DNA from: Tubulanus polymorphus
Taxonomy: Eukaryota > Animalia > Nemertea
Assembly: GCF_964204645.1 (NCBI RefSeq)
Contig: NW_027437445.1
Span: 1 to 64,000 of the forward strand
Length of the DNA stretch: 64,000 nucleotides
Direction: 5' to 3'
Shown in pieces: positions 12,400 through 63,913 of this stretch. The position numbers were made by a program, and so were the translations under genes. The first letter of the stretch is position 1. Each line of letters begins with the position of its first letter. The notes under the pieces are model-generated. The model ran no database searches. It saw only the letters and a program-made list of their open reading frames with translations, and was not told the DNA's origin.

Positions 12400-12462
12400 T
12401 TATTGTAGAAAAATTTTTATTTTCAATATTTGAAAATGTTGATAATAGCGTCATAAATCCAC

Positions 12463-13245: not shown

Positions 13246-13247
13246 GT

Positions 13248-15310: not shown

Positions 15311-15407
15311 ATAAACTACTATCTCGAAGTTTCATTTTCGGACTTTTTATTATCATTGTGGGATTCTCTCCTCATCGCGTCAACACGGATATAATGTTCT
15401 ACCAATC

Positions 15408-15992: not shown

Positions 15993-15994
15993 TT

Positions 15995-16238
15995 TGTGGC
16001 GTTGCGAGTCACAAAGAATACCAGGTTCGGAGATAAAAGAAGAGAAAGACTAAAAACACGACGCGTTCAGTCTACAGATCATAAGATACTCGTTTATTTC
16101 GGTCACACACAGGCTAACCACCTGTCCCGACTGCACATGCGCATGCTAATATATATATGATGATTCGCTACATAGGCTAAGGGGGAGTGAACACTTTATG
16201 GTTACTGACATATTTACATAAACATCCTGTTCTCGACA
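15995..16238 (-). repeat. 3' LTR of BEL element
   Basis: Differs from 28458-28699 by about 4 substitutions and one 2-bp indel. Confidence 0.95.
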
Positions 16239-40039: not shown

Positions 40040-41160
40040 TTATATGTTTTTAATTTTACTTGATAATATCCATTCATTGAATTTATCTGGCCATCCAACC
40101 CATTTTACTAAAGAATCTTTTTTTCTATTAACAGTTTTTGTTTTTAATACTTTTTCAATTTTATATTCTTGTTCTAGATTTTCAGTAGTTAAACTTAATT
40201 CTTCTTCATAAAAATACCCATCAACTTCTTCACCATCTAAATCTTTTAATTTATAGACATATGGTTTTGTTGTTATTACCTTTTTTATTTTATATATTTC
40301 TCTAGTTAAATAACGATCGTATCCTTTGTCAAATGCCTTTTTATACATAGAAATTCTAACATTTTGACCAACTTTGAATTTAGGTTCGCCAAAATCATCT
40401 ACAAGAAATGCTCCATACGAATTATTCCAAACAATTTCAGCATTTTCAGGTTTTCTAGCATCAATAGGTTCCATTCCAATAGAAGAATGATAAGAATTAT
40501 TATAACCTATTATCAATTCTGGTAAAATATCAATCCATTTATAAGTATTATTTACTGTGAAATATTTTGACATTCTTGTTCTCAATGTTCCATTTAATCG
40601 TTCAACAACTGCTGCTTTTTTATCCGATTTTGTTGAAAAATATTTAATATTATGAAAATCTATGAGTCCATGAACTAATTAATGAATTATCAAATTATTT
40701 TCCATCATCAAATTGTATTTTTTCTGGCTTTATTTTACCACCTGAAAGAAATTTTCTTAAAACATTTGATGTTTGTACAGGATATTTTCTATAAAGTGGG
40801 AAGCTCCATACATAACGACTAAAAATATCAATTATATTCAATATCCACCAATAATCATCATTATCTTTTATAAGATTTTTCATATCAATTAAATCTCCTT
40901 GCCACTGTTGATCTACATAACTTACCATAGTTTTACGAGTTTTATATTTTCTAACAATTTTTTTATGTGTTGTATATTTTGGTTGTTCTAACAGAAATTC
41001 ATTTATATCCTTATATTTAACTAAATTTTGTGGGATTATCTCATCTACTTTATCTTGTTTTACTTGTTTCCATATGTTTTTACAGAAGAATAAGCAACCG
41101 AACTCTCAGGATTATAATATAAATTTCTTAGATATTGTTCTTAAGTATTTCGAGTTTTAA
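40040..41160 (-). pseudogene. Polinton B integrase with chromodomain
   Basis: ORFs 40695 and 40040 are collinear with 62177-63304. Confidence 0.92.
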
Positions 41161-41173
41161 CTTTATATTTCTA

Positions 41174-41580
41174 TTATTGAATACTATCGAATTGAGAATT
41201 TATAATATTTAATTGGGCGTCAGATATAATATAAATGTGGACTTTGAAATTTTTGATTCATTTTTCTTTTTTATGAATAATTGAATTCCATCTTTTGTAT
41301 TTTGTAGTTTTTTTTCCCAGAACCATGTAATAAGTTATCTTCAGTTGTTCTAAAATCTAACCATAATGCGTATTTATTACCAGTATAATAATCAATTTGA
41401 TTAATATTACAATTTTCAGATGATTTTATTTTTTCCTTCATAAAATGTTTTCTAATTTCTGGCCACCGATCTATCATTCTCATTCCTTGGCAAAATACTT
41501 TATTAGCTATACCTTCAATAGTTATTTCTACCTTTGATATTTCAGGATTATAATAATTATCAACATTTATTGCGCGTTAT
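41174..41580 (-). pseudogene. Polinton B major capsid protein, C-terminal third
   Basis: Matches ~61740-62146; ends abruptly at the satellite. Confidence 0.9.
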
Positions 41581-44500: not shown

Positions 44501-47500
44501 GATAAATAATGTCGATGCGTAAAAGCGCTCAAATCGACGGGAAAAGCACATTTCGACCCGAAAACGTCGTTCAGCGCGAGAAAAGACGTTTTCTCGTCAA
44601 CTTATCCCCGTATCGGGAAAATGAAAATGTCGATGCGCAAAAGCGCTCTAATCGACGGGAAAAGCACATTTCGGCCCGAAAACGTCGTTCAGCGCGAGAA
44701 AAGACGTTTTCTCGTCAACTTCTCCCCGTATCGGAAAAATGAAAATGTCGATGCGCAAAAGCGCACAAATCGTCGGAAAAAGCACATTTCGGCCCGAAAA
44801 CGTCGTTCAGCGTGAGAAAAGACGTTTTCTCGACGGGAAAAGCACATTTCGGTCCGAAAACGTCGTTCAGCGCGAGAAAAGACGTTTTCTCGTCAACTTC
44901 TCCCCGTATCGGAAAATGATAAATAATGTCGATGCGTAAAAGCGCTCAAATCGACGGGAAAAGCACATTTCGACCCGAAAACGTCGTTCAGCGCGAGAAA
45001 AGACGTTTTCGTATCGAATATTCCCCCTATCGGAAAAACGACAATGTCGATTCGTAAAAGCGCACAAATCGTCAGGAAAAGCGCATATCGGCCCGAAAAC
45101 GTCGTTCAGTGCGAGAAAAGACGTTTTCTCGTCAGCTTCTCCCCGTATCGGAAAAATTATAATGCCGATGCGCAAAAGCGCTCAAATCGACGGGAAAAGC
45201 ACATTTCGCCCCGAAAACGTCGTTCAGCGCGAGAAAAGACGTTTTCTCGTCAATTTCTCCCCGTATCGGAAAAATGATAAATAATGTCGATGCGTAAAAG
45301 CGCTCAAATCGACGGGAAAAGCACATTTCGACCCGAAAACGTCGTTCAGCGCGAGAAAAGACGTTTTCTCGTCAACTTATCCCCGTATCGGGAAAATGAA
45401 AATGTCGATGCGCAAAAGCGCTCTAATCGACGGGAAAAGCACATTTCGGCCCGAAAACGTCGTTCAGCGCGAGAAAAGACGTTTTCTCGTCAACTTCTCC
45501 CCGTATCGGAAAAATGAAAATGTCGATGCGCAAAAGCGCACAAATCGTCGGAAAAAGCACATTTCGGCCCGAAAACGTCGTTCAGCTCGAGAAAAGACGT
45601 TTTCTCGACGGGAAAAGCACATTTCGGTCCGAAAACGTCGTTCAGCGCGAGAAAAGACGTTTTCTCGTCAACTTCTCCCCGTAACGGAAAAATGATAATG
45701 TCGATGCGTAAAAGCGCTCAAATCGTCAGGAAAAGCACTTTTCGACCCGAAAACGTCGTTCAGCGCGAGAAAAGACGTTTTCGTATCGAATATTTCCCCT
45801 ATCGGAAAAACGACGTTGTCGATGCGTAAAAGCGCTCAAATCGTCAGGAAATGCACTTTTCGACCCGAAAACGTCGTTCAGCGCGAGAAAAGACGTTTTC
45901 GTATCGAATATTCCCCCTATCAGAAAAACGACGATGTCGATGCGTAAAAGCGCTCAAATCGTCAGGAAATGCACATTTCGGCCCGAAAACGTCGTTCAGC
46001 GCGAGAAAAGACGTTTTCTCGTCAACTTTTCCCCGTATAGGAAAAATGATAATGTCGATTCGCAAAAGCGCTCAAATCGACGGGAAAAGCACATTTCGGC
46101 CCGAAAACGTCGTTCAGCGCGAGAAAAGACGTTTTCTCGTCAACTTCTTCTCCCCGTAACGGAAAAATGATAATGTCGATTCGCAAAAGCGCTCAAATCG
46201 ACGGGAAAAGCACATTTCGGCCCGAAAACGTCGTTCAGCGCAGGAAAGACGTTTTCTCGTCAACTTCTTCTCCCCGTAACGGAAAAATGATAATGTCGAT
46301 TCGCAAAAGCGCTCAAATCGACGGGAAAAGCACATTTCGGCCCGAAAACGTCGTTCAGCGCGAGAAAGACGTTTTCTTGTCAACTTCTCCCCGTATCGGA
46401 AAATGAAAATGTCGATGCGGAAAAGCGCACAAATCGTCGGAAAAAGCACATTTCGGCCCGAAAACGTCGTTCAGCGCGAGAAAAGACGTTTTCTCGACGG
46501 GAAAAGCACATTTCGGTCCGAAAACGTCGTTCAGCGCGAGAAAAGACGTTTTCTCGTCAACTTCTCCCCGTAACGGAAAAATGATAATGTCGATGCGTAA
46601 AAGCGCTCAAATCGTCAGGAAAAGCACTTTTCGACCCGAAAACGTCGTTCAGCGCGAGAAAAGACGTTTTCGTATCGAATAATCCCCCTATCGGAAAAAC
46701 GACAATGTCGATGAGTAAAAGCGCACAAATCGTCAGGAAAAGCGCATTTCGGCCCGAAAACGTCGTTCAGCGTGAGAAAAGACGTTTTCTCGTCAACTTC
46801 TCCCCGTATCGGAAAAATGATAATGCCGATGCGCAAAAGCGCTCAATTCGACGGGAAAAGCACATTTCGGTCCGAAAACGTCGTTCAGCGCGAGAAAAGA
46901 CGTTTTCTCGTCAACTTCTCCCCGTATCGGAAAAATGATAATGTCGATGCGCAAAAGCGCTCAAATCGACGGGAAAAGCACATTTCGGCCCGAAAACGTC
47001 GTTCAGCGCGAGAAAAGACGTTTTCGTATCGAATATTTCCCCTATCAGAAAAACGACGATTAAAATGCGAAAAAGCGCTCAAATCGTCAGGAAAAGCGCA
47101 TTTCGGCCCGAAAACGTCGTTCAGCGCGCGAAAAGACGTTTTCTCGTCAACTTCTCCCCGTATCGGAAAAATGAAAATGTCGATGCGCAAAAGCGCACAA
47201 ATCGTCGGAAAAAGCACATTTCGGCCCGAAAACGTCGTTCAGCGTGAGAAAAGACGTTTTCTCGACGGGAAAAGCACATTTCGGTCCGAAAACGTCGTTC
47301 AGCGCGAGAAAAGACGTTTTCTCGTCAACTTCTCCCCGTAACGGAAAAATGATAATGTCGATGCGTAAAAGCGCTCAAATCGTCAGGAAAAGCACTTTTC
47401 GACCCGAAAACGTCGTTCAGCGCGAGAAAAGACGTTTTCGTATCGAATAATCCCCCTATCGGAAAAACGACAATGTCGATGAGTAAAAGCGCACAAATCG

Positions 47501-49252
47501 TCAGGAAAAGCGCATATCGGCCCAAAAACGTCGTTCAGTGCGAGAAAAGACGTTTTCTCGTCAACTTCTCCCCGTATCGGAAAAATGATAATGCCGATGC
47601 GCAAAAGCGCTCAATTCGACGGGAAAAGCACATTTCGGTCCGAAAACGTCGTTCAGCGCGAGAAAAGACGTTTTCTCGTCAACTTCTCCCCGTATCGGAA
47701 AAATGATAATGTCGATGCGCAAAAGCGCTCAAATCGACGGGAAAAGCACATTTCGGCCCGAAAACGTCGTTCAGCGCGAGAAAAGACGTTTTCGTATCGA
47801 ATATTTCCCCTATCAGAAAAACGACGATTAAAATGCGAAAAAGCGCTCAAATCGTCAGGAAAAGCGCATTTCGGCCCGAAAACGTCGTTCAGCGCGCGAA
47901 AAGACGTTTTCTCGTCAACTTCTCCCCGTATCGGAAAAATGAAAATGTCAATGCGCAAAAGCGCACAAATCGTCGGAAAAAGCACATTTCGGCCCGAAAA
48001 CGTCGTTCAGCGTGAGAAAAGACGTTTTCTCGACGGGAAAAGCACATTTCGGTCCGAAAACGTCGTTCAGCGCGAGAAAAGACGTTTTCTCGTCAACTTC
48101 TACCTGTAACGGAAAAATTATAATGTCGATGCGTAAAAGCGCTCAAATCGTCAGGAAAAGCACTTTTCGACCCGAAAACGTCGTTCAGCGCGAGAAAAGA
48201 CGTTTTCGTATCGAATATTCCCCCTATCAGAAAAACGACGATGTCAATGCGTAAAAGCGGTCAAATCGTCAGGAAAAGCGCATTTCGGCCCGAAAACGTC
48301 GTTCAGCGCGAGAAAAGACGTTTTCTTGTCAACTTCTCCCCGTATCGGAAAAATGATAATGTCGATGCGTAAAAGCGCTCAAATCGTCAGGAAAAGCGCA
48401 TTTCGGACCGAAAACGTCGTTCAGCGCGAGAAAAGACGTTTTCTCGTCAACTTCTCCCCGTATCGGAAAAATGATAAATAATGTCGATGCGTAAAAGCGC
48501 TCAAATCGACGGGAAAAGCACATTTCGACCCGAAAACGTCGTTCAGCGCGAGAAAAGACGTTTTCGTATCGAATATTCCCCCTATCGGAAAAACGACGAT
48601 GTCGATTCGTAAAAGCGCACAAATCGTCAGGAAAAGCGCATATCGGCCCGAAAACGTCGTTCATTGCGAGAAAAGACGTTTTCTCGTCAACTTCTCCCCG
48701 TATCGGAAAAATTATAATGCCGATGCGCAAAAGCGCTCAAATCGACGGGAAAAGCACATTTCGCCCCGAAAACGTCGTTCAGCGCGAGAAAAGACGTTTT
48801 CTCGTCAACTTCTCCCCGTATCGGAAAAATGATAAATAATGTCGATGCGTAAAAGCGCTCAAATCGACGGGAAAAGCACATTTCGACCCGAAAACGTCGT
48901 TCAGCGCGAGAAAAGACGTTTTCGTATCGAATATTCCCCCTATCAGAAAAACGACGACGTCAATGCGTAAAAGCGCTCAAATCGACGGGAAAAGCACATT
49001 TCGGCCCGAAAACGTCGTTCAGCGCGAGAAAAGACGTTTTCTCGTCAACTTATCCCCGTATCGGAAAAATGAAAATGTCGATGCGCAAAAGCGCTCTAAT
49101 CGACGGGAAAAGCACATTTCGGCCCGAAAACGTCGTTCAGCGCGAGAAAAGACGTTTTCTCGTCAACTTCTCCCCGTATCGGAAAAATGATAATGTCGAT
49201 GAGCAAAAGCGCTCAAATCGTCGGGAAAATCACATTTCGGTCCGAAAACGTC
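41589..49252. repeat. 118-bp satellite array, about 65 monomers
   Basis: Unit GCACATTTCGGCCCGAAAACGTCGTTCAGCGCGAGAAAAGACGTTTTCTCGTCAACTTCTCCCCGTATCGGAAAAATGATAATGTCGATGCGCAAAAGCGCTCAAATCGACGGGAAAA; first period 41589 to 41707. Confidence 0.98.
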
Positions 49253-49338
49253 AGTAATTGGGAATGTAGGCTTTCAGATCAGAGGGCGAGAGGGCGAGAC
49301 ACCACTCATCACCACAAGTAATTTTTTTTTCCTTATAA

Positions 49339-52300
49339 ATGGGGGAGAATGAACACCAACTAGAAAACAATAATGTCAATAAAAATCAATATTATTGTCA
49401 ATATTGTAAAAAAAAAATCGATACATCTTATAAAACACGACATGAAAAAACTGCAAATCATATAAAAAATGTAATAGATTTTGAAACTCCAGAAAATTCC
49501 AATGAAAGAAAAGAACGATTAGAAAATATGAATGTGGATGAAATAAAATGTGAAGTTTGTAATGAATTTATAGTAAAAAGGAATTATAATAGACATCTCG
49601 AATCACAAAAACATTATAAAAATTTAAATAAAAATGTTTTAGGATTAGAATATTTTGATAATAAACCTCAACAAGTAAAAGAATCAACTTCAAAAACTAA
49701 ATCCATTTCAAATAAACCTTACATGGAAAATGTTAGAAATTATATTGATTCACTAGAAATAAAAGATACAATTGAAATTTTAGAAACATTACATAGTAAA
49801 ATTGGTCCTGCAGCTATTATATTTAGATTTTTTAAAGGTACAACAATAGAAGATTATAGTAAATTTAATGAAATAATAGAAAAAATACTAGATTTGATAA
49901 CAGATGTTGAATATCCAAAAATTAGTATCTCTGGGAAAGTAAGTTTTATAAAGTCAGAAGATAAAATGGATTATAATATTCAAACACTCTCTGAAGAAAT
50001 AATTTCAAAAACACAAATAAAAGAGAAGTTAGAAAAAATATTAAATGAATTTAAACGTCATATTGAAGAAAGATATTTTGAGGGTTCTGGCTTAACATTG
50101 AATGAAATTATATATTTAGATTTAAATGTTTATAATACAAAAAGGAATAAAACATCAAAAAGTAATAAAATGTTTAAAAATGATTCAAACTTTACAACAG
50201 AAAAGGATATTAAAGCATCATCTTATATTAAATTACCATTTATAACAAAAGCAGTAATAAATATTCAAAATGAAGATAATAAATGTTTTCTATGGTCAAT
50301 TATTAGTTGCTTACATCCAACACAGGAAAATGTTTGTAGAATAACAGATTATCGGAAATATGAAACATTATATAAAATTGATCAATATCCAGTAACTATA
50401 AAAATGATTCCTAAAATAGAAAAAGTTAATAATTTAAAAATAAATGTATTCGAATTAATGCAATTACCAAAGACAAAAGGTGAAAATATTAAAGATTATA
50501 CATTGGAAGCTTTATATTTAACAGAATATTATGATGATGAAAATGCTATAGATTTGTTACATTACAAAAAAGATGAAAATGAACATTATATGTGGTTAAA
50601 ACAAATTGATTTATTCTTTAGAACAGAAAGTGATCATCATAATAAAATTTATCTATGTAGAAAATGTTTATCTAAATTTATGACTGAGAATACATTATTA
50701 AAACATAAAGAATTATGTGATAATAAAGATTTTTGTAAATTAATAATGCCAACAGAAAAAGATTATAAATTGAAATTTACTAATCATAAATTTAAAAATA
50801 TTGTTCCATTTGTAATTTATGGGGATTTTGAATCGTTGAATAAAGAATTAACTGGTCAAGATAGAAAAGAAATATATAACAAAAAGCAATTATTAAAATC
50901 AATGGATAAAGGAAATGAATTAAATGAAGACACAATACAAGACCCACCAATTATAAATACAATTAAAAAAGTTCATCAAAGAGCTGCTGCTTATGGAATT
51001 TACATAAAATCAAATTATCCTGAATTATATGAAAGTCAATATATTTCTTTTAGAGGTGAAAATGTAGTTAATGATTTTTGTGATAAAATGATTGAATTAG
51101 AAAGTGATTTTACAAAATTATTAAACAAAAATAAAAGAATAGTTATGACAAAAGAAGATGAAATTGATTTTAATTATGCAACTCATTTTTGTTACTGTGA
51201 AAAACGTTTTTATTCATTTGATAAAAAAGTTAGAGATCATGATCATTTAAATTCAAAATATCGTGGAGCTGCTCATGAAGATTGCAATTTACAAGCTAAA
51301 AAAGTAAATTTCGTACCAATATTATTTCATAATTTATCAGGATATGATACCCATCTATTTATAAAACAATTATCAGGAAAATTGGGTGCAATTAATCAAG
51401 AAATAGAAGAATATAATGCTATGAATGAAGCAAATGTAAGAAAATATGATTTTAAACTATTAGCTAAAACATCTGAAAATTATATTTCATTTCAATTTGG
51501 TTGCATTAGATTTTTAGATTCTTATAGATTTCTAGCAAGTTCATTAGATAATTTATCAAAAAGTTTAGTTGATAATGATTTTGTTATAACTCGATATTAT
51601 TATCCAAATGAACAAGATTTTAAATTATTGAGATATAAAGGCGCAATTCCTTATTCATTTTATAAAACACATGATGATTTTAATGTAACAGAATTATTAA
51701 AAGATCAATTTTATGATCAATTAAAAGAGGAGTATGTGAAAGACGAAGTTTTTAATAGAACATTAAATATTTGGAACCATTTTAAGATGAAAAATCATGG
51801 CGAATTAGTTGATTTATATTTAAAATCAGATGTTATGATATTGGCTGACATATTTGAAAAATTTAGAGAAGTTAATTTGAATCATTTTAATGTTGATCCT
51901 TGTTATTGTTATTCTAGCCCAGGATTAACCTGGCAATGTGGTTTAAAATATACAAATGTAGAATTAGATTTATTAAAAGAACCAGATATGATTTTATTAT
52001 TTGAAAAATCAATTAGAGGTGGAATTAGTGGTGTTATGGGAGATAGGTATTTTAAAGCAAATGATGAATATAAATTATTATATATTGACGCCAATAATTT
52101 ATATGGTTGGGCAATGATGCAACCTCAACCATATAAAAATTTTATATTAACAGAAGTTGAAAATGGTGATAAAACTGATTGGGAAAGCGCAATTATTAGT
52201 TTAAAAGATGAAGCACCAATTGGTTATTTCTTTGTAGTTGATTTAGAATATCCTGAAAATATAAAGTTTAAAACAAGAAACTTACCTTATTGCCCAGAAC

Positions 52301-54402
52301 ATTTAACTGTAGATGATAGTTATTTAAGTGAATACCAGAAGAAAATAAAACCGAAAGATCATGTTTTTACAGAAAAATTAATACTTACTCAAAATAATAA
52401 ATACAATTATATTGTTCATTATAGAATGTTAAAATTTTATCTAAAACAAGGAATGAAATTAAAGAAAGTACATAGATATATTGAATTTAATCAATCGAAG
52501 TGGTTAGAAAAATATATAGATTTCAATACTCAACAGAGAACCATATCAAAAACAGATTTTGAAAAAGATTTTTTCAAATTGATGAACAATAGTTTTTATG
52601 GAAAAACATGTGAAAATATTAGAAATAGAAATGATATTGAATTAGTAAATAATTCTGAAAGATTAAGACATTTACAATCAAGTCCTAGACATTTAGGAAA
52701 TAAAAGGTTTGAAGATTATTTAACCGCGGTAAAATTAAAAAGAACGTCCATGAAATTTAATAAACCAATATTTATAGGTTCAACTGTTTTAGAAATTTCA
52801 AAATTATTGATGTATGAATTCTATTATAATGTATTACAACCTCATTTTGGAGAAAAACATATAGAAATCTTATATTTTGATTCTGTAACAGCTGATACTC
52901 CAATATTATTAAAATATAATAATCAAATATTAATTAGAAGAATTTCAGAAATAATTTCTTATCAAAATAAATCTTATATTTCGTATGGTGAAAAAGAACT
53001 AATACAAATAAATGGATTAATGGATGTTTGGACAAAAAATGGATGGGCGAAATTAAAGAATATAATTAGACATAAAACGAATAAGAAAATCTATAGAGTT
53101 AGAACTAAATTAGGATTTGTTGATGTTACTGAAGATCATAGTTTAATTAAACAAAATGGTGATGAAATAAAACCAACTGATATAAAAATTGGAGATGAAT
53201 TATTACACAACAGATTTTACCCAAGAATGAATCATATGTCATTTGATGAAATAATTGATAATATTTATAATATAGAACCCGAAACATTAGAAGAAAAAAA
53301 ATATTTTATCAAAGGATTTTTCATGGGCGATGGTTCAGCAGGTGTGTATAATTATGTTAATCGCACTCAATATCGTTGGTATTTATGCAATCAAGACTTA
53401 AAATTATTAGAAAGAATTAAGAAATTCTGTGAAGAAGTTTATCCAAATAAAACATTTAGAATCATGGATCATATGAAATCATCCGCGGTTTATAGAATAT
53501 TTGTAAATAATCCTAAAGATTTTGCTACAAAATATAATGATGAATTCTATATTCATGCAATAGTGAAAAGTAATACTTCAACTAAAGAAAAGATAGTTCC
53601 AGATTATGTATTAAATGCAAAAAATAATTTAAGAAAATGGTTCTTCATTGGATTCTATGCAGCAGATGGTTCAAAAAGTTTCCAAAACCGCAAAACAATA
53701 TCCTTTGCTCAAAAAGGAAAAGTTGCTATATCAGGATTGAATATATTATGTAGTTCATTAGGATTTAATATGAATATAGAATTAATTAAATCTAAACCAA
53801 ATTGTTTTAATTTAAGGCATGTAGAAAAAGAATTAACAGAAGAAGTTAAAGATTTATTTGAAATATATAACCCAACTGACTATGTTTATGATTTATCAAC
53901 AGATGATGGAACATTCAATTCTGGGTTCCCATTAATCCAAAAAAATACCGACAGTTACATACTAAAAATCAAGACAAATGACATAACAAAAGACTTAAAA
54001 ACATTAAAACATTATTTTGATTTTAGCAATTACCCCAAAGATCATGAATTGTTTAGCAATGATAATAAAAAGATTCCTGGTAAGTTTAAAGATGAATTAG
54101 GAGGTGATGAAATGATTGAATTTGTTGGGATAAGAAGTAAAATGTATAGTTACAGAACAAAAGATCATGAAGCTAAAAAGTTAAAAGGAATAACAAAACA
54201 TGTGGTTGATAAACATATAGAATTTCAAGATTATATAAAGTGTTTATATAAATCAATTCTAATGAAACACAAAATGAATTGTTTTAGATCAGAAGATCAT
54301 GAGATGTACATTAATGAAGTTGAAAAAACTAGTTTAAATCCATTTGATGATAAAAGGCATATTTTAGATGATGGTATAAAAACATTACCTTATGGCCATT
54401 AA
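49339..54402 (+). CDS. polB: Protein-primed family B DNA polymerase precursor containing an intein
   Basis: N-terminal Zn fingers, NKCFLWSI, exonuclease motifs YGDFES / FHNLSGYD / YLKSDV, EndoVII-like DHDH...GAAH..CN, motifs A YIDANNLYGWAM and B KLMNNSFYGK, split motif C YFD//TDS; 1687-aa open frame. Confidence 0.96.
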   Translation: MGENEHQLENNNVNKNQYYCQYCKKKIDTSYKTRHEKTANHIKNVIDFETPENSNERKERLENMNVDEIKCEVCNEFIVKRNYNRHLESQKHYKNLNKNVLGLEYFDNKPQQVKESTSKTKSISNKPYMENVRNYIDSLEIKDTIEILETLHSKIGPAAIIFRFFKGTTIEDYSKFNEIIEKILDLITDVEYPKISISGKVSFIKSEDKMDYNIQTLSEEIISKTQIKEKLEKILNEFKRHIEERYFEGSGLTLNEIIYLDLNVYNTKRNKTSKSNKMFKNDSNFTTEKDIKASSYIKLPFITKAVINIQNEDNKCFLWSIISCLHPTQENVCRITDYRKYETLYKIDQYPVTIKMIPKIEKVNNLKINVFELMQLPKTKGENIKDYTLEALYLTEYYDDENAIDLLHYKKDENEHYMWLKQIDLFFRTESDHHNKIYLCRKCLSKFMTENTLLKHKELCDNKDFCKLIMPTEKDYKLKFTNHKFKNIVPFVIYGDFESLNKELTGQDRKEIYNKKQLLKSMDKGNELNEDTIQDPPIINTIKKVHQRAAAYGIYIKSNYPELYESQYISFRGENVVNDFCDKMIELESDFTKLLNKNKRIVMTKEDEIDFNYATHFCYCEKRFYSFDKKVRDHDHLNSKYRGAAHEDCNLQAKKVNFVPILFHNLSGYDTHLFIKQLSGKLGAINQEIEEYNAMNEANVRKYDFKLLAKTSENYISFQFGCIRFLDSYRFLASSLDNLSKSLVDNDFVITRYYYPNEQDFKLLRYKGAIPYSFYKTHDDFNVTELLKDQFYDQLKEEYVKDEVFNRTLNIWNHFKMKNHGELVDLYLKSDVMILADIFEKFREVNLNHFNVDPCYCYSSPGLTWQCGLKYTNVELDLLKEPDMILLFEKSIRGGISGVMGDRYFKANDEYKLLYIDANNLYGWAMMQPQPYKNFILTEVENGDKTDWESAIISLKDEAPIGYFFVVDLEYPENIKFKTRNLPYCPEHLTVDDSYLSEYQKKIKPKDHVFTEKLILTQNNKYNYIVHYRMLKFYLKQGMKLKKVHRYIEFNQSKWLEKYIDFNTQQRTISKTDFEKDFFKLMNNSFYGKTCENIRNRNDIELVNNSERLRHLQSSPRHLGNKRFEDYLTAVKLKRTSMKFNKPIFIGSTVLEISKLLMYEFYYNVLQPHFGEKHIEILYFDSVTADTPILLKYNNQILIRRISEIISYQNKSYISYGEKELIQINGLMDVWTKNGWAKLKNIIRHKTNKKIYRVRTKLGFVDVTEDHSLIKQNGDEIKPTDIKIGDELLHNRFYPRMNHMSFDEIIDNIYNIEPETLEEKKYFIKGFFMGDGSAGVYNYVNRTQYRWYLCNQDLKLLERIKKFCEEVYPNKTFRIMDHMKSSAVYRIFVNNPKDFATKYNDEFYIHAIVKSNTSTKEKIVPDYVLNAKNNLRKWFFIGFYAADGSKSFQNRKTISFAQKGKVAISGLNILCSSLGFNMNIELIKSKPNCFNLRHVEKELTEEVKDLFEIYNPTDYVYDLSTDDGTFNSGFPLIQKNTDSYILKIKTNDITKDLKTLKHYFDFSNYPKDHELFSNDNKKIPGKFKDELGGDEMIEFVGIRSKMYSYRTKDHEAKKLKGITKHVVDKHIEFQDYIKCLYKSILMKHKMNCFRSEDHEMYINEVEKTSLNPFDDKRHILDDGIKTLPYGH
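52882..53946 (+). mobile_element. Intein (355 aa) with LAGLIDADG homing endonuclease
   Basis: Block A SVTADTPIL, block B VDVTEDHSLI, blocks C/E FIKGFFMGDGS and FFIGFYAADGS, block F YVYDLST, C-terminal KN followed by +1 Thr. Confidence 0.95.
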
Positions 54403-55699
54403 AACATAAAATCAATATCATCATACTCGAAATCACTATTGGCTTCTTCATTTTCATTTAATTGTTCAGGTTCTTCTTCCATTCCATTTTTCTCATTTAA
54501 ATAAAGTTCTATCTTGTTCCACATTTCATCTCGCTCTCTTTGTTTCTTTTTGTTTGTTAATTCATCAAATGGAATTATAATATCTAGGTTTAAATAATTT
54601 ACAATCTTATTTAAAAAGAATTCATAATTTATTGAATCTGTTATTCTATTTTCCAAATGATACATTAATATTTGTTTGAATATTTTTTTTATATTTTTCA
54701 TATCTTCTTCTGTTAATTTAGGTTTTTCATAATAATCGTTAAATAATAAATATAAATACATTTTCTTTTGTTTTGTGTTAAATGTTGGTGGAATAATTGT
54801 TTTTATAATATCTTTTTTAGTTATTTCACCATTTTCATTTTCTATTATTTTCATTTTTTCAAGCCATTGCATATATTCTGGTGTATGATCTTCTATAGAA
54901 AATATTTTAAAAATTTCATCAAGATAATTTAATTTTGGATCTATGAGAAAATCTCTAGTTTTTTCTTCACCTAATAAATTCTTTTGCCATCCACATTCAT
55001 TACAAAATATCACAGGACCTTCTTGTCTTAAGTACTCATAAATACATTGTGGGCATTTTTTTCTATCATAGCTTGGTAATAGATCTTCATTAAGCTCTTG
55101 GTATTTTCTTACGTTTTCTTTATGTTTTATTGTTCTATTATGTAGATTTGAATTACTTGTTGTAATAATCAATTTACAATATTTACAATAATATGTTTTT
55201 CTTGTTAATTCATTATATTGTTTTTCTAACTTTTCAACTGTTTCTTCATTATCTGGTAACGTTTTCTCATATTTAAATTTTTCTAATAAATTATTTTTTC
55301 TTTCATTGAATTCAGTTTCAAATTTATTAGAAATTTTATCTATATGTACTTTACGAAATTGATGATTCTCCCAATCTTCTATATTTTCAGGGTTATATTT
55401 TATTCGACAAGGCTCACAGAAATGATCTTTTATATTATCCTTATCATAGAATAAGAAAGGTCTTTTCCAAATAACTTCAGGTTCAACTTCAGCAGAATTA
55501 CTATCAACATTAGCCGTTGCGCCATTAATTCTACACTTCTCTGAATGTTTTTAACATAATTTCTTGAGAATAATTTATCACATTTTGGGCAGTTTATTTT
55601 AGGGGGTTTATAATTTTCATCATGTTTTTTCATATGTCGAGCCTTATTACTTTTTCTTAGAAGTTCACCACAAATTTCGCATGCTATCTTCTCATCCAT
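54399..55699 (-). pseudogene. Multi-zinc-finger protein with VLTF3 (poxvirus A2)-like C-terminal domain; frameshift near 55550
   Basis: TAAATG start; CEIC...H...H, CPKC, CEPC, CKYC fingers; CPQC...CNECG ribbon then KPKLTEE...IFKQI...INYEFFLNKI...DEMWNKI; VLTF3 call is by eye. Confidence 0.65.
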
Positions 55700-55767
55700 T
55701 TATTAAGGAAAAATTTTATTAAAATTAATTTTTAGTGATGAGCGGTAATTTTTTTATGTTATAAATA

Positions 55768-56526
55768 ATGGTAGAATTAAAAGAATACAGAATATTTGTT
55801 GATTCTAGAAAACTTACAAATTATAAATCTCATAATTTATTAGTACAATTAGATAGAGAATTTAAGAATTGCGTTGATTTAAAATTAGTAAATATAAGTT
55901 TATGTAATTCTTTTTATAATATATCGGATAAAACTTTCGAACATAGAGGTTTTGCAATTCATATGAAAAATAAAAATAAATGGTTTTATCTAATGTTAAA
56001 ACCAGGGTTATATAATTTAGAAACATTAGCCCAAGAAATTAATCGGAGAGCACGATTAAAACTTGGAAGTGAATATAAATTTTCAATTAGATTTATAAAA
56101 AGTGATAGTTCTGATAAAATTAAAATAAAGTTAGATGATGAAAGCAAACATGCATTTATGGTAAGGAAACCTTTAGCTAAAATGTTAGGAATTAAACCAC
56201 AAATTGTTACAGGAAACGTAGACGGTAATTCAAATATAATACCTTTTACACATTTTTATATTTATTGCAATTTAATCGATCCTACAAAAACATTTGAAGC
56301 AACTAAAGATACAACATGTAATTCTGGTTTACTAAACATTTTACCATTGAAGAATGTTAAACAATTTGGAACGCAAATAAATTATAATTTAACAGAATGT
56401 GATTTCAAACCATGCATTCCTCGTTTTAATAATTTTAGATTAGAAATTAGAAATCATACTGGATACTTAATTGATTTAAATAATTTCCCTGTAATTTATG
56501 AATTAGTTATAAGATGTAAAGAGTAA
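55768..56526 (+). CDS. Minor capsid protein (penton)
   Basis: IFVDS, NSFYNI, PGLYN, YIYCNLID, LLNILP and LEIRN..G.LIDLNN motifs typical of Polinton pentons. Confidence 0.8.
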   Translation: MVELKEYRIFVDSRKLTNYKSHNLLVQLDREFKNCVDLKLVNISLCNSFYNISDKTFEHRGFAIHMKNKNKWFYLMLKPGLYNLETLAQEINRRARLKLGSEYKFSIRFIKSDSSDKIKIKLDDESKHAFMVRKPLAKMLGIKPQIVTGNVDGNSNIIPFTHFYIYCNLIDPTKTFEATKDTTCNSGLLNILPLKNVKQFGTQINYNLTECDFKPCIPRFNNFRLEIRNHTGYLIDLNNFPVIYELVIRCKE

Positions 56527-56542: not shown

Positions 56543-56884
56543 ATGAATATAACTGTTGGACCGAGTATATGTTTTGGGTTTGATTTTAAACATGGTAAAG
56601 AAATGAGAATTAAACTAAATGATGTAATTACTGATGTAAAAAGTAGATCATTTAACAATGCATCAATGATTGATAAAGAAAATTATAATATAGAAAAAGT
56701 AATTGATTTAATTAAATCACCTTTAGAATATTATGAATTAAATGAAGATGGAATTATTGATGATATTAAAAACATATTATCCAAAATATATGATAATCAT
56801 AAAACTAGTAATGAAATAAATGTTGAAATAATCATCACTAAGATAACTAAATATTTTGATGATAGTAATTTTTTTGATAAATAA
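56543..56884 (+). CDS. Polinton hypothetical protein
   Basis: TAAATG start, tightly packed open frame. Confidence 0.65.
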   Translation: MNITVGPSICFGFDFKHGKEMRIKLNDVITDVKSRSFNNASMIDKENYNIEKVIDLIKSPLEYYELNEDGIIDDIKNILSKIYDNHKTSNEINVEIIITKITKYFDDSNFFDK

Positions 56885-57106
56885 ATGAGTGATAATAAGT
56901 GGATAATAAGTGGATTATATAATGGCGCATTACTATCAGTTGGAACGGTTGGTTATTCAATGGTATTAAAAAAAGTATTCAAAATGGGAAGTGTTAATGT
57001 TGATAGATTTGATATCAATGATATTTTAAAGTTAACATTAGCAGTTACTTTATCTAATTTAACTATTGATTATTTGGAAAAACAAAAATATATTCCTCCC
57101 ATATAA
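56885..57106 (+). CDS. Small hydrophobic Polinton protein
   Basis: TAAATG overlaps the upstream stop; two hydrophobic/amphipathic segments. Confidence 0.7.
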   Translation: MSDNKWIISGLYNGALLSVGTVGYSMVLKKVFKMGSVNVDRFDINDILKLTLAVTLSNLTIDYLEKQKYIPPI

Positions 57107-57133
57107 GAAGTGTGTAATTTTTTTGCTAAATAA

Positions 57134-57556
57134 ATGGCTTCTGCAATTATAACTATTATAGGATCGGCAATTGTTAACGCTTTAGCATTTACTGGTGGTG
57201 GTTATTTATTTAAACATATTGATAAAAATAGTTCATTAGGAGAACAAAGAAGACATAACTTAGCGTTAGAGAAATACAATAAAGCTGCAGAAGAATATAG
57301 AGAAAAGAGACAAAACTATATGGATTACATCAATAAAGAATTATATGATCAGAAGATTTCACACAGAGATTTTCAATCAGTTGATGATGCAATGAGTTTA
57401 TATAACGCGGTAACCAATAAAGAAAAATTACATCTATACAAACCCAAATTATCAGATTATTATACCCCAAGTAAAGAACAACAGAAATATGAAATAATAT
57501 GGATTTTAGGTGGAACAGTTATTGTTATATTTGTTGCTTATAAGTTTACTAATTAG
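57134..57556 (+). CDS. Polinton membrane protein (N- and C-terminal hydrophobic segments)
   Basis: TAAATG start; IITIIGSAIVNALAFTGGG and IIWILGGTVIVIFVAY. Confidence 0.75.
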   Translation: MASAIITIIGSAIVNALAFTGGGYLFKHIDKNSSLGEQRRHNLALEKYNKAAEEYREKRQNYMDYINKELYDQKISHRDFQSVDDAMSLYNAVTNKEKLHLYKPKLSDYYTPSKEQQKYEIIWILGGTVIVIFVAYKFTN

Positions 57557-57575
57557 TAATTTTTATTCTAAATAA

Positions 57576-58010
57576 ATGGAAGATAAAGTTGATAGTATTG
57601 ATATTATTCCTCATGATATAAATAAAACTAAATTAAAAATATATTTAGAAAAACAAATATTAGAATTTGAAAGTGACTTAAAGATAAAAAAGAAAAAATA
57701 TTTAAAAAGTAAAATTATATATTATTTGATTATAAGTGGTTCGGTTACAATTAGTTCTGTAATAACATTTTTAGCAATATTCAGCCCATTAACACCTTTA
57801 GCTATATCAATTGGTGTATTAGGATTAAGTTCAAGTGTTTTAACTGGTATAAGTTCAAAATTAAATATAAAAAGTAATAAAGAAAAAATTAAAACTAATA
57901 TAAAAGAAATTAATAAATTAAAGAACACACTAGATTATATAATAAGTTTAAATGGCCATATAACAGTTGAAGAACAAGATAAATTATTAAAAGAATTAAT
58001 AAATTATTAA
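57576..58010 (+). CDS. Two-TM Polinton protein with coiled coils
   Basis: TAAATG start; ~45-aa central hydrophobic hairpin. Confidence 0.75.
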   Translation: MEDKVDSIDIIPHDINKTKLKIYLEKQILEFESDLKIKKKKYLKSKIIYYLIISGSVTISSVITFLAIFSPLTPLAISIGVLGLSSSVLTGISSKLNIKSNKEKIKTNIKEINKLKNTLDYIISLNGHITVEEQDKLLKELINY

Positions 58011-58026
58011 TTTTTTAATTATATAA

Positions 58027-59413
58027 ATGGTAGATAGTTTTCCAAAAGCTTTCCGATATAATAAATCAATTAAATATAATATTCCAGCAATAGATTTTAA
58101 TAAAGATATTACATATAGAAATGAAGTTTTAGATTCATTAACTAATTTAGAAATTTATGTTACTGAAACTAATAATTTTAATGCAAAGATGGAAAATATA
58201 TTTCATGTATATTTAATTAATTTTAAAAAATTGAAAGATGAAAAACAATGGTTATTAAAATCTAATATGAAGTATTGGCAGAACCAATTAAATTTTGCTG
58301 TTTATTGTGCAACAACAGGATGTGGAATTAGTTGGAATGATCATTTAAATAATTCTAAATATAAATTAATTCAAAGTTTATTTAGATTTCATACATACTT
58401 TCAAATCAGAATAATATTAAATGAATTAGAGTACGCTTTACCAGGATCTAGGTATTTCAAAGAATTAGATAATAATATTAATTTATCTAAGTTTTATAAG
58501 ATTTGCAATGAATTTAATATAGATATAAATAATTCTGATTTTAGAACAAAAATTGGAACAATAAGATCACTTCCATGCCCTAGAAAGATTGCAGAATATT
58601 GTGCACTTCCCATACCATCTAATACTTTTTATAATATCTATAATAATAAATTAGGTTATGGTAAAATAGAAACAAAGGATTTAGAAACATTAAATTTCAA
58701 TAAATTACCAAAATTTTATGATAATTTAAAACAAGAAAACAATAATGGTTGGGTTTATTTTATTTTAGAAAATAGTGAAGGTTTTACTAAATCAGGTATA
58801 GAAAGAATAAATCAATCTATTAGAATTTATTTGATTTGTATTCTAGGTGCGCAAGTTGAAACAAGATCACCGATAACTGGAAATTTGAATACATCATTCG
58901 ATACACAAAAACAATTTAAAGTATTATTTGAAGATTCCATACATGATGATAAAAATAGATCGATTCCAGAAAACATTATAAGATATCAAAATTATTTAGA
59001 TAAATCTCATGTAAGACTTAATTATTGTATAGGCCCTAATCTATTAATTATTTCTAATGATTTAGTATTGAAGATGGGAAATATAATTGGTTATAATAAT
59101 CTAATTAAAACTGCAACAATAAATAATTCATTCGGGTTAAATAATATAAATAAAAAGATTATTACTGCTCCAAAATTAATGGAAGGTGAAAAAAATAAAA
59201 AAACATATTCAATCAACAGAAACTAAAACTAAGAATATTAAATTAAATAATGATTCTAAAATAAAAGATTACAATACATCAGAAAATAATAGAACTGATA
59301 TTATTCAACATGATATAATTAAACTAAATGATGATAATAAATCCCATGAAAATACTAAATTAGCTAAATTAACTTGTATAGGAATTGTTATAGGAGGAAT
59401 ATTATATTTTTAA
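58027..59413 (+). CDS. Polinton hypothetical protein, probably frameshifted in the A-run near 59190-59200, with a C-terminal TM segment
   Basis: 399-aa ORF (WQNQLNFAVYCATTGCGISW) overlapped by a 75-aa ORF that has no TAAATG of its own. Confidence 0.7.
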
Positions 59414-59435
59414 TTTTAATTTTTTTATTATATAA

Positions 59436-60878
59436 ATGGATGTAGAAGGTGGAGAAGATATTGGAATGGATCCTTTTGATGAACCTAACATAACTGATGA
59501 ACAACCACCTGATTTTGATGAAACAAGTTTTAATGATGGTAATGAACCAGAATATAACAATAATTTAAATATGCCTGATTATATTAAAAATGCTGAATCA
59601 CAATTAAATCCTGAAAATTTAGACCCAGATTTAGTAAAACAAGATTTAGATAATTTAAACAAAATACCTAAATTAGAAGATTTAATTGAAAAATCTAATT
59701 TTAACATAAATGATGAAGACGTTGCACTTTTAGCAGATCAATTAAAATTTTTAGATAATGGTAAATGTAATTATCGTTTGAAAGGTGATTATTATATTGA
59801 TATCACTTATAAAAATAATAAAAATAAAATATTATCAGAATCAACTTTAGAAAAATTAAAACCAGATAGAATTAAAATAAAAAGTAATAGTAATGAAATA
59901 ACTGATGTTACACAAAAAGAAATAGATGATAATATAGATGTATTTAAACAAAGAATTAATGAATTATTTGAAATAATCAAAAAGAAATCAGAAACAGAAA
60001 CAACTTCTGAACAGAATATAACTTCCAAAAATAGTAAACTTAGATCAAATAAAGTTCCAATTGAAAAACTTTTACCGAATGGATTACTTGATGCAACAGA
60101 TCAAGAATTAGAAGATTTAGATATATTTTCTGATAAAGCAATTAGAGAAATTATTAGTATAAGACTTGCATCTGATAAAATTGCACATAATAAAAGTATA
60201 AGAGATTTTAAAATTAGAACTTTAGAAAAAGAATTAACTGATAAAAATAAAGAAATAGAACAATTAAAGTCTGATTTAGATCATCAAGTAATTGATGAAA
60301 TAGAATATAGGCAAAAAGAATTACGTTTAGAAAAAGAAATTAGTAATTTAAAAGATAATTTAGAAGTACAGAAAGAAGAAATTAAATTATTATTAAAATC
60401 ATATGATTATAATATTAATAGATTAAAAGTTATTTTTAAAGATTTGTTGATTAAACCAAATTCTGAAATATCATTAAAAGACAGGATGAAGTTATTATTT
60501 AAATTAGAAGGAATAACAATTCTTTCAATTCTAACAGCTGTAACTATGTTATTTACAACAATTGGTTTAGCTATATCAAATGCTTTAAAATCTACTCCTC
60601 CTACTCCCACTCCCAATAAACCAGATAAACCTCCAGGCAATAATTCTATACAAGATAAAGTTAAAGATGGTTTAAAGAAATTAGCAAAATATTTATGGGA
60701 ACTATCTAAAAAATCTGCTGCAGCATTGCCAGGAGTTATTGCATCAATTGTTGGTTTTATATTGAAATCTGCTGGGAATATTCTTAACTTTGCTGCCGAA
60801 CATATTATTTTATTTTTAATTACAGTTGTAAGTGCTATTATTTTTGGTTTAGTAAATATGATATCAAAAAATAAATAA
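59436..60878 (+). CDS. Coiled-coil protein with C-terminal multi-TM region
   Basis: Acidic N-terminus, heptad region, Pro-rich linker, three hydrophobic segments. Confidence 0.8.
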   Translation: MDVEGGEDIGMDPFDEPNITDEQPPDFDETSFNDGNEPEYNNNLNMPDYIKNAESQLNPENLDPDLVKQDLDNLNKIPKLEDLIEKSNFNINDEDVALLADQLKFLDNGKCNYRLKGDYYIDITYKNNKNKILSESTLEKLKPDRIKIKSNSNEITDVTQKEIDDNIDVFKQRINELFEIIKKKSETETTSEQNITSKNSKLRSNKVPIEKLLPNGLLDATDQELEDLDIFSDKAIREIISIRLASDKIAHNKSIRDFKIRTLEKELTDKNKEIEQLKSDLDHQVIDEIEYRQKELRLEKEISNLKDNLEVQKEEIKLLLKSYDYNINRLKVIFKDLLIKPNSEISLKDRMKLLFKLEGITILSILTAVTMLFTTIGLAISNALKSTPPTPTPNKPDKPPGNNSIQDKVKDGLKKLAKYLWELSKKSAAALPGVIASIVGFILKSAGNILNFAAEHIILFLITVVSAIIFGLVNMISKNK

Positions 60879-60898: not shown

Positions 60899-62146
60899 AT
60901 GAGTGGGAGTTATATAAGTCCTTCTAAGATTTCTAGAATATCTAATGCTATTAAAGCAGAAAGATCACATCATATAATTACTCATAACCCTTCAAATATT
61001 AATCCCGATGAAACTTTATATGTTAGAATTCCTAGATTAACACAAAATACTTTTTATGTTCCAAACAGTATTTATTTATCAGCTGATATAAAAGTAATCG
61101 GTAATAATAATAATTATGTTGTTGATAATGTTGGAAGATATTTGATTAAAAAATTAACAATAAAGATTGGTCCGGAAACAGTTTTCTCATTAGATGATTA
61201 TAATTTATTTTCACATTATAAAGATTTATGGTTAACTAAAGAAAATAGAAATAATATGATATTTCAAGGAATTCAATCAGAAAACCAAAATAAATTAAGA
61301 TCAGAAGCGCATAATGCAATATTAACTAATGATGTAGATAAATTGATAAAAAGTATATATGGAAGCAAATATAAAATTCCATTAGACTTTGAATTGATAG
61401 ATAATAATGCACCTTTATATAAATACGCAATTCAAGAAGATATTATATTTGAGATAACATTTGCTCCTGTAAATTAAATTGTATTATCTAGCGTTGTTAA
61501 AGATATGAGTTATAAATTATCGAATATATGTTTAGAATATAACACAATAACTAATGAAAATATTGCTAGCACAATTCAAACTCAATACAATCAAGGATTT
61601 TCATTATTATATGATTATATTGATAAATTTAAAACTGTAACTATTAATGCAAATGATGAAATTATTAATGAGAATATTAACTTTCCTAGAAGATCTATTA
61701 AAGGTATATTAATATTTTTTACCATTGGAACGTATACTAATGGCGCAATAAAGGTAGATAATTATTATAATCCTGAAATAACAAAAGTAGAAATAACTAT
61801 CGAAGGAATAGCAAATAAAATATTTTGTCAAGGAATGAGAATGATAGATCAATGGGTAGAAATTAAAAAACATTTTATGAATGAAAAATTAAAATCATTT
61901 GAAAATTGTAATATTAATCAAATTGACTATTATACCGGTAATAAATTTGCATTATGGGTAGATTTTAGAACAACTGAAGATAACTTATTACATGGTTCTG
62001 GGAAAAAATTACAAAATACAAAAGACGGAATACAATTATTTATGAAAAAGAAAAAAGGAAGTTTAAATTTCAAAATGCACATTTATATTATATCTGACGC
62101 ACAATTAAATATTGTAAATTCACAATTAGATAGTATTCAATATTAG
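60899..62146 (+). pseudogene. Major capsid protein (double jelly-roll), single nonsense at 61475-61477
   Basis: The two ORFs are in frame (27-nt gap), ~415 aa; NPS.I.P.ETL.V.IP, YKIPLDF, FALWVDFRT; size and position fit a Polinton MCP. Confidence 0.8.
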
Positions 62147-62176
62147 AAATATAAAGTTAAAATTAAGGATATATAA

Positions 62177-63304
62177 ATGAGTGGTAAAAAAACTCCTAAT
62201 ACTAAAGAACAATATTTAAGAAATTTATATTACAACCCTGAGAGTTCGGTTGCTTATTCTTCTACTAAAAATATATGGCGTAAAGTAAAACAAGATAAAT
62301 TAGATAAGATAATCCCACAAAATTTAGTTAAATATAAAGATATAAATGAATTTATGTTAGAACAACCAACATATACAACATATAAAAAAATTGTTAGAAA
62401 ATATAAAACTCGTAAAACTATGGTAAGTTATGTAGATCAACAGTGGCAAGGAGATTTAATTGATATGAAAAATGTTAAGAAAGATAATGATGATTATTGG
62501 TGGTTATTGAATATAATTGATATTTTTAGTCGTTATGTATGGAGTTTCCCACTTTATAGAAAAGATGCTGTACAAACATCAAATGTTTTAAGAAAATTTC
62601 TTTCGGATGATAAACTAAAACCAGAAAAAATACAATTTGATGATGGAAAAGAATTTGATAATTCACTTGTTCATGAACTCTTAGATAATCATAATATTAA
62701 ATATTTTTCAACAAAATCAGATAAAAAAGCAGCAGTTGTTGAACGATTTAATAGAACATTAAGAACAAGAATGTGGAAATATTTTACAGCAAATAATACT
62801 TTTAAATGGATTGATGTTTTACCAAAATTGATAGAAGGATATAATAATTCTTATCATTCTTCTATTGGAATGAAACCTATTGATGCTAGAAAATCTGAAA
62901 ATGCTGAAATTGTTTGGAATAATTTATATGGAGCATTTCTTATAGATGATTTTGGTGAACCTAAATTTAAAGTTGGTCAAAATGTTAGAATTTCTAAGTA
63001 TAAAAAGATATTTGACAAAGGATACGATCGAAATTTTACTAGAGAAATATATAAAATAAAAAAGGTAATAACAACAAAACCATATGTCTATAAATTAGAA
63101 GATTTAGATGGTGAAGAAGTTGATGGTTACTTTTACGAAGAAGAATTAAGTTTAACTACTGAAAATCTAGAACAAGAATATAAAATTGAAAAAGTATTAA
63201 AAACAAAAACTATTAAAAGAAAAAAATATTCTTTAGTAAAATGGGTTGGATGGCCAAATAAATTCAATGAATGGATATTATCAAGTAAAATTAAAAATAT
63301 ATGA
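62177..63304 (+). CDS. Retroviral-type DDE integrase with C-terminal chromodomain
   Basis: WQGDLIDM, IDIFSR, QFDDGKEF, VVERFNRTL; YKIEKVL...LVKWVGWP..FNEWI. Confidence 0.95.
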   Translation: MSGKKTPNTKEQYLRNLYYNPESSVAYSSTKNIWRKVKQDKLDKIIPQNLVKYKDINEFMLEQPTYTTYKKIVRKYKTRKTMVSYVDQQWQGDLIDMKNVKKDNDDYWWLLNIIDIFSRYVWSFPLYRKDAVQTSNVLRKFLSDDKLKPEKIQFDDGKEFDNSLVHELLDNHNIKYFSTKSDKKAAVVERFNRTLRTRMWKYFTANNTFKWIDVLPKLIEGYNNSYHSSIGMKPIDARKSENAEIVWNNLYGAFLIDDFGEPKFKVGQNVRISKYKKIFDKGYDRNFTREIYKIKKVITTKPYVYKLEDLDGEEVDGYFYEEELSLTTENLEQEYKIEKVLKTKTIKRKKYSLVKWVGWPNKFNEWILSSKIKNI

Positions 63305-63913
63305 ATGAATAAGGAATTATTCATATTTGAGCCTCATAATATGTTAATTTCTGGTGTAACAAATTGTGGAAAAACTTATTTTATATTAAATTTATTAGAA
63401 ACTGTTTACAAAAACTATTTTGATAATATAGTATTATTTTGTCCAACATATGAATTTAATCAAACTTATGATAGAAATATTACTAGGAATAATAAATTTA
63501 TTATATTAGATCCTAAAACAGTAAAATAAAATTTAGATAATTGTATAAAAATAGCAATTGATATTTATAAAGGATCAAATACATTATTTATCATAGATGA
63601 TTGTGCTAATCTACATGATTCAAAAGTTAGAGAAAGTGAGTTATGTTATTTGGCTTTCTCTGGAAGACATTTTGGGATAACAACTTCGGTTTTAAATCAA
63701 AAATATAATTCAATTGTTAAAGACTTTAGAGAAAACATTAGATTTCTAGTTTTATTCTACAATAAAGATAGAAAATCGATGAAAAATGCACTTGAGGAAA
63801 ATGATATTATTCCACATGATTTACATAATGAATATATGGATAAGTTGAAAAATATTAAAAGATCAAAATTACTATTTAGATTACAACACCCATTTAAATA
63901 TGAATTTATTTAA
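63305..63913 (+). pseudogene. A32-like packaging ATPase, nonsense at 63527-63529
   Basis: Walker A GVTNCGKT, Walker B IIDD, GRH; TAA where copies A and B have GAA. Confidence 0.92.

Follow-up and report, generated by a model that had tools for sequence, protein, structure and literature searches.

The genes of a Polinton in the first 64,000 nucleotides of the Tubulanus polymorphus contig NW_027437445.1 (hereafter, the window) nearly all begin with a start-site motif of the poxvirus type, and one of these genes encodes a homologue of the large-DNA-virus late transcription factor VLTF3 (vaccinia A2) fused to an array of four zinc fingers. The element, which is 23% GC, occupies the window from position 49253 to its end at 64000; its genes are tightly packed, the zinc-finger VLTF3 gene is broken in this copy, and the DNA polymerase gene (polB) holds an intein that is shared with giant viruses. 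We propose, at roughly even odds (about 0.5), that these sequence features mark a helper-dependent, virophage-like Polinton lineage, in which the zinc-finger VLTF3 would likely direct a helper's RNA polymerase to promoters of the element itself. The question of whether animal Polintons behave as autonomous viruses, as transposons, or as parasites of larger viruses is still open, and the part of the present work for which no printed precedent was found is the promoter code, rather than the VLTF3 gene.

The consensus at the gene starts is a T-tract followed, after 5-9 nt, by ATAAATG, with the start codon inside the motif. TAA/ATG (the slash preceding the start codon) is found at 10 of the 12 gene starts and at 33 of the 578 other ATGs of the element (Fisher p 9e-11); when a run of at least four T residues is required upstream, the counts become 9/12 and 6/578, and an eleventh gene has TAAAT one base ahead of its ATG. 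The strict pattern occurs seven times in the 64 kb, always at a gene start, as compared with 0.03 occurrences in shuffled sequence. The sites include both sides of a 68-nt divergent gap, as well as one located 86 nt from the element's end, and their presence at divergent and isolated starts points to more than stop-start coupling. The T-tract and TAAATG also precede five open reading frames (ORFs) of an older fragment at 7.5-12.4 kb. It could be argued that TAAATG simply provides a context for translation or results from AT-rich compaction, and that the VLTF3 fusion was acquired as cargo and binds nucleic acid in some unrelated role, as might fit the element's low GC content, the two starts that directly follow a stop codon, and the patchy occurrence of VLTF3 in polintoviruses, including its absence from 26 of 27 related loci. 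We consider this improbable, as the equally AT-rich loci L184 (GC 0.22) and L172 (0.26) prefer AAA/ATG and lack the trait, the T-tract stands at a fixed distance, a T at -3 makes a weak context for initiation in eukaryotes, and colinearity with VLTF3 from ribbon to tail has been kept in three lineages at 37-49% identity.

Among the 27 related loci encoding a protein-primed PolB (pPolB), the motif is seen only in L004 (2/2 starts) and L002 (7/7). In the other 25 loci, some of them equally AT-rich, TAA/ATG stands at 20 of 300 starts, and most prefer AAA. A FastTree phylogeny of pPolB, built from 25 of 28 rows (L188, L192, and L193 were left out because they had no qualifying ORF), places the window, L004, and L002 on one side of a branch with a support of 92, not starred. 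L192, which is therefore outside the tree, has a T-tract and TAA/ATG at 3 of its 14 ORF starts, the top count among the other relatives. At L002:2740-4251, a distant Polinton encodes an integrase with a 150-aa N-terminal extension that may resemble a cysteine protease. When IMG/VR was scanned with the promoter pattern, the matches listed were single ones, and none of them lay in a relative of the element.

An upstream T-tract is a feature of poxvirus late promoters. TAAAT serves as the initiator for the intermediate and late genes of vaccinia, whose messages gain a poly(A) leader by slippage (PMC6211774). Nine of the 11 intergenic gaps are no longer than 30 nt, and this tight packing, together with the T-tract and TAAATG, would suggest an organisation closer to that of a cytoplasmic, poxvirus-style expression unit than to that of genes read by RNA polymerase II (Pol II). 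Full-text searches of the literature did not find a promoter code of this kind, and supplements may already show such features.

Additional sequence features were observed near the gene starts. An 8-mer, CTCATCAC, lies upstream of both polB (49305-49312, plus strand) and the VLTF3 gene (55735-55742, minus strand), which are its only two sites in the element; it is a candidate factor-binding site, although not one clearly retained in L004. At the integrase and ATPase starts (62150-62179 and 63280-63307, plus strand), an A-rich upstream tract (TAAAATTAA) replaces the T-tract and is possibly a second promoter class. A mild depletion of the poxvirus early terminator, TTTTTNT, in the coding strands was set aside as too weak (9 versus 15.9 +/- 2.5, reached in 4/300 shuffles, for one of five motifs).

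The VLTF3 gene was first proposed by a sequence-only reading of the window, and the motifs and four zinc-finger-like units that it quoted all lie on the minus strand where it had placed them. Specifically, a CPQC...CNECG ribbon at 55055-54990 is followed by KPKLTEEDMKNIKKIFKQI, INYEFFLNKIVNYL, and KQRERDEMWNKI, in that order, and the units N-terminal to the ribbon are CEIC (55681), CPKC (55591), CEPC (55418), and CKYC (55187), the last of which scores 29.1 bits as zf-U1 (cut-off 22). The overlap of the gene's stop codon with that of polB, in a TTAA at 54399-54402, is also present, so that the two genes lie tail-to-tail. The same reading treated 54399-55699 as one gene, which holds, although the gene is not one open frame: a break near 55550-55559 separates the first two fingers (in frame from 55699 to approximately 55559) from the remainder (in frame from 55550 to 54402). 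Both frames match the same intact 697-aa relative, P0003 (54% over 46 aa and 43% over 367 aa), and we therefore regard them as a single frameshifted gene. A three-sequence search matched the fourth finger with the first one in the element's polB (17 bits), and the fingers were thus likely supplied by the Polinton itself.

Homology to VLTF3/A2 is supported by both profile and fold. The Pfam family Pox_VLTF3 (PF04947) matched three trimmed queries at 26.2, 28.4, and 31.3 bits (cut-off 25), whereas it was not listed by Pfam for the whole 383-aa frame, for P0003-P0005, or for a trimmed L004 core; such misses in full-length scans may explain why genes of this kind lack annotation. Using HHalign, three Polinton-type cores aligned with seven giant-virus VLTF3s, from ribbon to tail, over 187 columns (probability 97, E 1e-10). 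These seven were taken from 16 of 35 loci searched, eight of which had VLTF3, with L043 excluded on account of its short ORF. A profile of the seven gave the window frame 22.7 bits, relative to 4.9 for the best of 500 shuffles, and P0003-P0005 were not among its top 10 rows. For structural comparison, the core was modelled from a five-sequence alignment (pLDDT 80); the single-sequence model was poor (pLDDT 45) and was not used. In a Foldseek search of BFVD, 14 of the 20 top rows were named VLTF3 or late transcription factor, as were four of the five rows at E <= 0.001; the leaders were cowpox and two entomopoxvirus proteins, poxvirus VLTF3s made up three of the four top matches, and the TM score relative to cowpox VLTF3 was 0.64. 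No Foldseek match in the PDB reached E <= 0.001 with the core model, PDB sequence searches with the gene product returned zinc fingers only, and PHROGs yielded nothing useful. Profile and structure thus bear out the likeness to VLTF3 that had been read from the sequence.

Relatives of the fusion gene are few. A full HMMER scan of 1.84 billion protein representatives returned three related clusters with six members, while word-indexed homologue searches found none with the single protein and P0004 only with an alignment; scans of IMG/VR with the VLTF3 gene, the integrase, and the capsid found no relatives. The same array of four fingers is present in P0003 and P0004, both of them intact, and P0005 consists of the ribbon and helical domain only. 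P0005 and P0008 are divergent, 281-aa VLTF3-like proteins without the zinc-finger array, from contigs of 6-13 kb. The intact orthologue in a sister Polinton that the sequence-only reading had called for is provided by L004, which encodes P0003 tail-to-tail with its pPolB, with the stops abutting, and whose pPolB is 74-83% identical to that of the window.

In light of earlier polintovirus reports, the presence of a VLTF3 gene in such elements is already known. The source for the coral polintovirus gene is said to be Krupovic and Koonin (2016). VLTF3 in polintoviruses of stony corals is stated in PMC11131425, which also describes its patchiness, and the gene is listed in MELD viruses (PMC8502044), in groups of Polinton-like viruses (PLVs; 10.64898/2026.06.19.733378), and in Tetraselmis PLVs (10.1101/2025.10.09.676808); VLTF2/3 are called undetected outside Nucleocytoviricota in a passage of PMC11253617. 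Of direct relevance are the viruses that keep VLTF3 without encoding an RNA polymerase, namely chloroviruses, prasinoviruses, CpV-BQ1, mriyaviruses, and ariadnaviruses, all of which are thought to use the host nucleus (PMC12085832, 10.64898/2026.08.29.747986, PMC11253617). No RNA polymerase gene is present among the 12 genes of the element's visible 14.7 kb, from which the sequence-only reading had argued for a helper. That argument is not sufficient, given these polymerase-less viruses, and the helper idea instead draws independent support from the TAAATG starts (10/12) and the intein shared with giant viruses.

The same viruses lie behind the main rival explanation, in which the element would be autonomous and nuclear, with the zinc-finger VLTF3 serving as a partial TFIIB that recruits host Pol II to the TAAATG promoters. 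Pol II is presumed to serve the polymerase-less large DNA viruses, the element's integrase implies entry into the nucleus, and the core model may hint at a TFIIB-like cyclin fold. Specifically, the ribbon-then-helices model aligned weakly in VIA to cyclin/TFIIB-type chains in 19 of 50 rows (best Z 6.2, below the tool's trust level; rmsd, the root-mean-square deviation, 3.5-3.8 over approximately 90 residues), but these matches were tied with nuclear-receptor domains (22/50 rows). Moreover, the polymerase-less viruses have retained VLTF2 as well, and in many cases TFIIB or TBP, none of which was recognised among the 12 visible genes. Both polB and the VLTF3 gene themselves bear the motif, leaving no visible early class with which to start a cascade. 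The hexamer AATAAA is not depleted in the nine coding strands (59 versus 54.9 +/- 4.0 expected), and the intergenic gaps are too short for untranslated regions. On this balance, we regard the nuclear alternative as less likely, albeit the strongest of the competitors.

Under the helper-dependent reading, the intact factor would likely have recruited to the promoters of the element an RNA polymerase encoded by a large, poxvirus-like DNA virus infecting the same cell. The motif would act as a post-replicative initiator of the poxvirus kind, with messages starting inside TAAAT and acquiring a poly(A) leader by polymerase slippage, and such promoters would be read in the cytoplasm by the helper's polymerase. 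The helper's own factors would prime the first round, because the motif stands at polB and at the VLTF3 gene alike, and the polB-like zinc fingers might anchor the factor on the DNA or RNA of the element, thereby biasing the borrowed machine toward element genes. Virophages follow a rule whereby the promoter is matched to that of the helper (10.1101/2025.10.09.676808), and PLVs are present in entomopoxvirus occlusion bodies (PMC11296320); four further sources offer general gene-exchange evidence only (PMC3671162, PMC5294986, PMC12220804, 10.1101/2024.03.23.586382). It is tempting to extend the proposal to an animal Polinton lineage of integrated virophages of poxvirus-like viruses, in which all genes would use the post-replicative promoter code of the helper and a zinc-finger-tethered late factor would capture the helper's polymerase, although we hold this fuller version somewhat short of even odds. 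Alternatively, the factor might act as a decoy, entering the helper's late initiation complex and shutting off its late genes, such that the element would be a defensive provirophage protecting the host. The surface motifs of giant-virus VLTF3s are indeed altered while the fold is kept, and PLVs and virophages that have integrated can reduce the yield of the helper (10.1101/2025.10.09.676808). A plain block would, however, silence the element too, as its own genes seem to depend on that late-type machinery, and we give the decoy little credence.

The intein in polB is a second, but old, trace of cells shared with large DNA viruses. Its relatives in IMG/VR comprise 37 loci, 17 of which are named as giant-virus bins and 28 of which share the GD/S junction (the slash marking the splice point); the best identity to same-site giant-virus PolB inteins is 41-42%. 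An intein common to the protein-primed PolB and to the RNA-primed giant-virus PolB amounts to a crossing between two polymerase subfamilies. The intein is absent from the sister polB in L004, and it was not detected in the other related pPolB loci. A tree of the inteins, from which 16 of the 37 loci were left out as partial, duplicate, or unmatched, had no starred set and did not place the Polinton intein; we therefore claim no donor. Homing endonuclease domains in polinton pPolBs have been read as likely intein invasions in a passage of PMC11071308, and PMC10748475, which it cites, makes no mention of an intein or of LAGLIDADG.

Several observations weigh against helper dependence. Its central parts, the helper, the transcription, and the factor binding, are predictions from sequence. 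VLTF3 is retained by several large DNA viruses that lack an RNA polymerase (PMC12085832, 10.64898/2026.08.29.747986). TAAATG is not favoured at the giant-virus loci whose inteins are closest (L005 0/5, L006 1/7), which, together with the unresolved intein tree, indicates that the intein marks an old contact rather than a present dependence. L002 bears the motif, but no VLTF3 is detectable in its 9-kb fragment; as such, the link between motif and gene holds in two of the three carriers, which falls short of showing that they go together. The top Foldseek matches are all only 14-23% identical, the lead of the poxvirus proteins among them may reflect the shortness of poxvirus A2, and residues kept in the seven sampled giant-virus VLTF3s (YKR.NH, YYE, and R.NFLSY) are altered in the window protein. 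Finally, the element's right end lies outside the window, and the visible part is limited to 14.7 kb.

The visible Polinton comprises 12 genes, encoding pPolB, VLTF3, seven further ORFs, a capsid, an rve-chromo integrase, and an A32 ATPase (Table 1). The Polinton/Maverick hallmarks of pPolB, rve integrase, A32 ATPase, and jelly-roll capsid are present, the capsid match being weak (E 0.003); an adenovirus-type cysteine protease and a minor capsid protein were not recognised among the visible ORFs of the element, which is incomplete in the window. In-frame stops in the capsid and ATPase genes argue that this copy is in decay, and that the decay is real. The AG terminus at the left end is of Polinton type, and no second copy of the left-end sequence was found within the 64-kb window, the right end lying beyond 64000. 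A satellite array with a 118-bp unit directly adjoins the left end; it contains approximately 65 copies at 41589-49252, is 47% GC, and has on its other side a capsid-integrase-ATPase fragment (39473-41575) that is inverted and 91% identical. Decayed Polinton sequence is also present in two further fragments, at approximately 7.5-13.3 kb and 39.5-41.6 kb, both of which lack a VLTF3 gene, and the older fragments at 7544-13300 are 73-85% identical. The surrounding sequence is repeat-rich, with Pao/BEL, LINE-type, Penelope-like, and MULE elements, and this content points to an animal host. Pao elements are mostly metazoan. A Penelope-like ORF (reverse transcriptase and GIY-YIG) between 297-nt inverted repeats, and a 590-nt inverted repeat within a Pao element, were also observed (14232-15995 and 24762-26524).

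Table 1. Features of the Polinton and of its VLTF3 gene (positions are those of the window)
Feature	Position	Strand	Remarks
Polinton left end and polB start signal	49253..49341	+	AGT at end; T-tract + TAAATG 86 nt from end
Protein-primed PolB, 1687 aa	49339..54402	+	intact; two N-terminal U1-type fingers and intein
LAGLIDADG intein, 355 aa	52882..53946	+	polymerase motif C (FD/S...N/TDS)
Frameshifted VLTF3 gene	54399..55699	-	four zinc fingers, VLTF3 (poxvirus A2-like) zinc ribbon and helical domain, acidic tail
VLTF3 core (ribbon and helical domain)	54465..55079	-	modelled at pLDDT 80
Four zinc-finger units	55120..55699	-	two C2H2/C2HC-like, two U1/matrin-like; second spans frame break
Divergent intergenic region, 68 nt	55697..55770	.	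two back-to-back T-tract + TAAAT signals (VLTF3 gene; ORF 55768)
ORF, 252 aa	55768..56526	+	starts TAAAT-A-ATG; possibly minor capsid protein, from position only
Six ORFs (56543, 56885, 57134, 57576 weakly SLATT-like, 58027, 59436)	56543..60878	+	ATAA/ATG start on each
Major capsid protein gene	60899..62146	+	weak Capsid_N match; in-frame stop 61475-61477; ATAA/ATG start
rve integrase with chromodomain	62177..63304	+	intact; ATAA/ATG start behind A-rich, not T-rich, tract
A32-type packaging ATPase	63305..63909	+	one in-frame stop, codon 75; without TAAATG start

A poxvirus-type initiator on nearly every gene offers both a cheap, direct test and a marker that could be scored over thousands of animal Polintons. 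If helper dependence is true, start-site motifs would sort animal Polintons into helper-dependent and autonomous groups, and would indicate the family of the helper. In addition, a small, naturally re-targeted VLTF3 would help to clarify the role of a factor that is core to large DNA viruses but poorly understood.

In comparison with the VLTF3/vaccinia A2 family, the window gene has a colinear ribbon and helical domain and the C-terminal Y..FL.K and D..W..I pattern. It differs in its four fingers, where the seven giant-virus ORFs have a long, low-complexity N-terminus, and in being Polinton-borne, changed in several conserved motifs, and broken in this copy. The element resembles the VLTF3-bearing polintoviruses and PLVs, being Polinton-type with pPolB, rve integrase, capsid, ATPase, and a VLTF3 gene; in contrast, the descriptions compared here give no zinc-finger fusion, promoter motif, intein, or mechanism. 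To our knowledge, the pGKL cytoplasmic elements of yeast have no capsid or integrase. They are AT-rich, compact, and linear, with a TAAAN initiator as in poxviruses, but an RNA polymerase and a capping enzyme are among their own gene products (PMC6211774). The entomopoxvirus-associated PLVs are likewise small, Polinton-like elements tied to invertebrate poxviruses, whereas they are described as highly diverged, in a main text without promoter, TAAATG, VLTF3, or intein (PMC11296320). Virophages and provirophages that share the late promoter of their helper have protist hosts, Megaviricetes helpers, and a dependence that has been demonstrated, while the window element has a likely animal host and a poxvirus-type motif, and its helper is a predicted one. 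Like mavirus and the EMALEs with CroV, and Tetraselmis Tsv with TetV-2, it is nonetheless integrated and polymerase-less, with one start-site motif on most of its genes.

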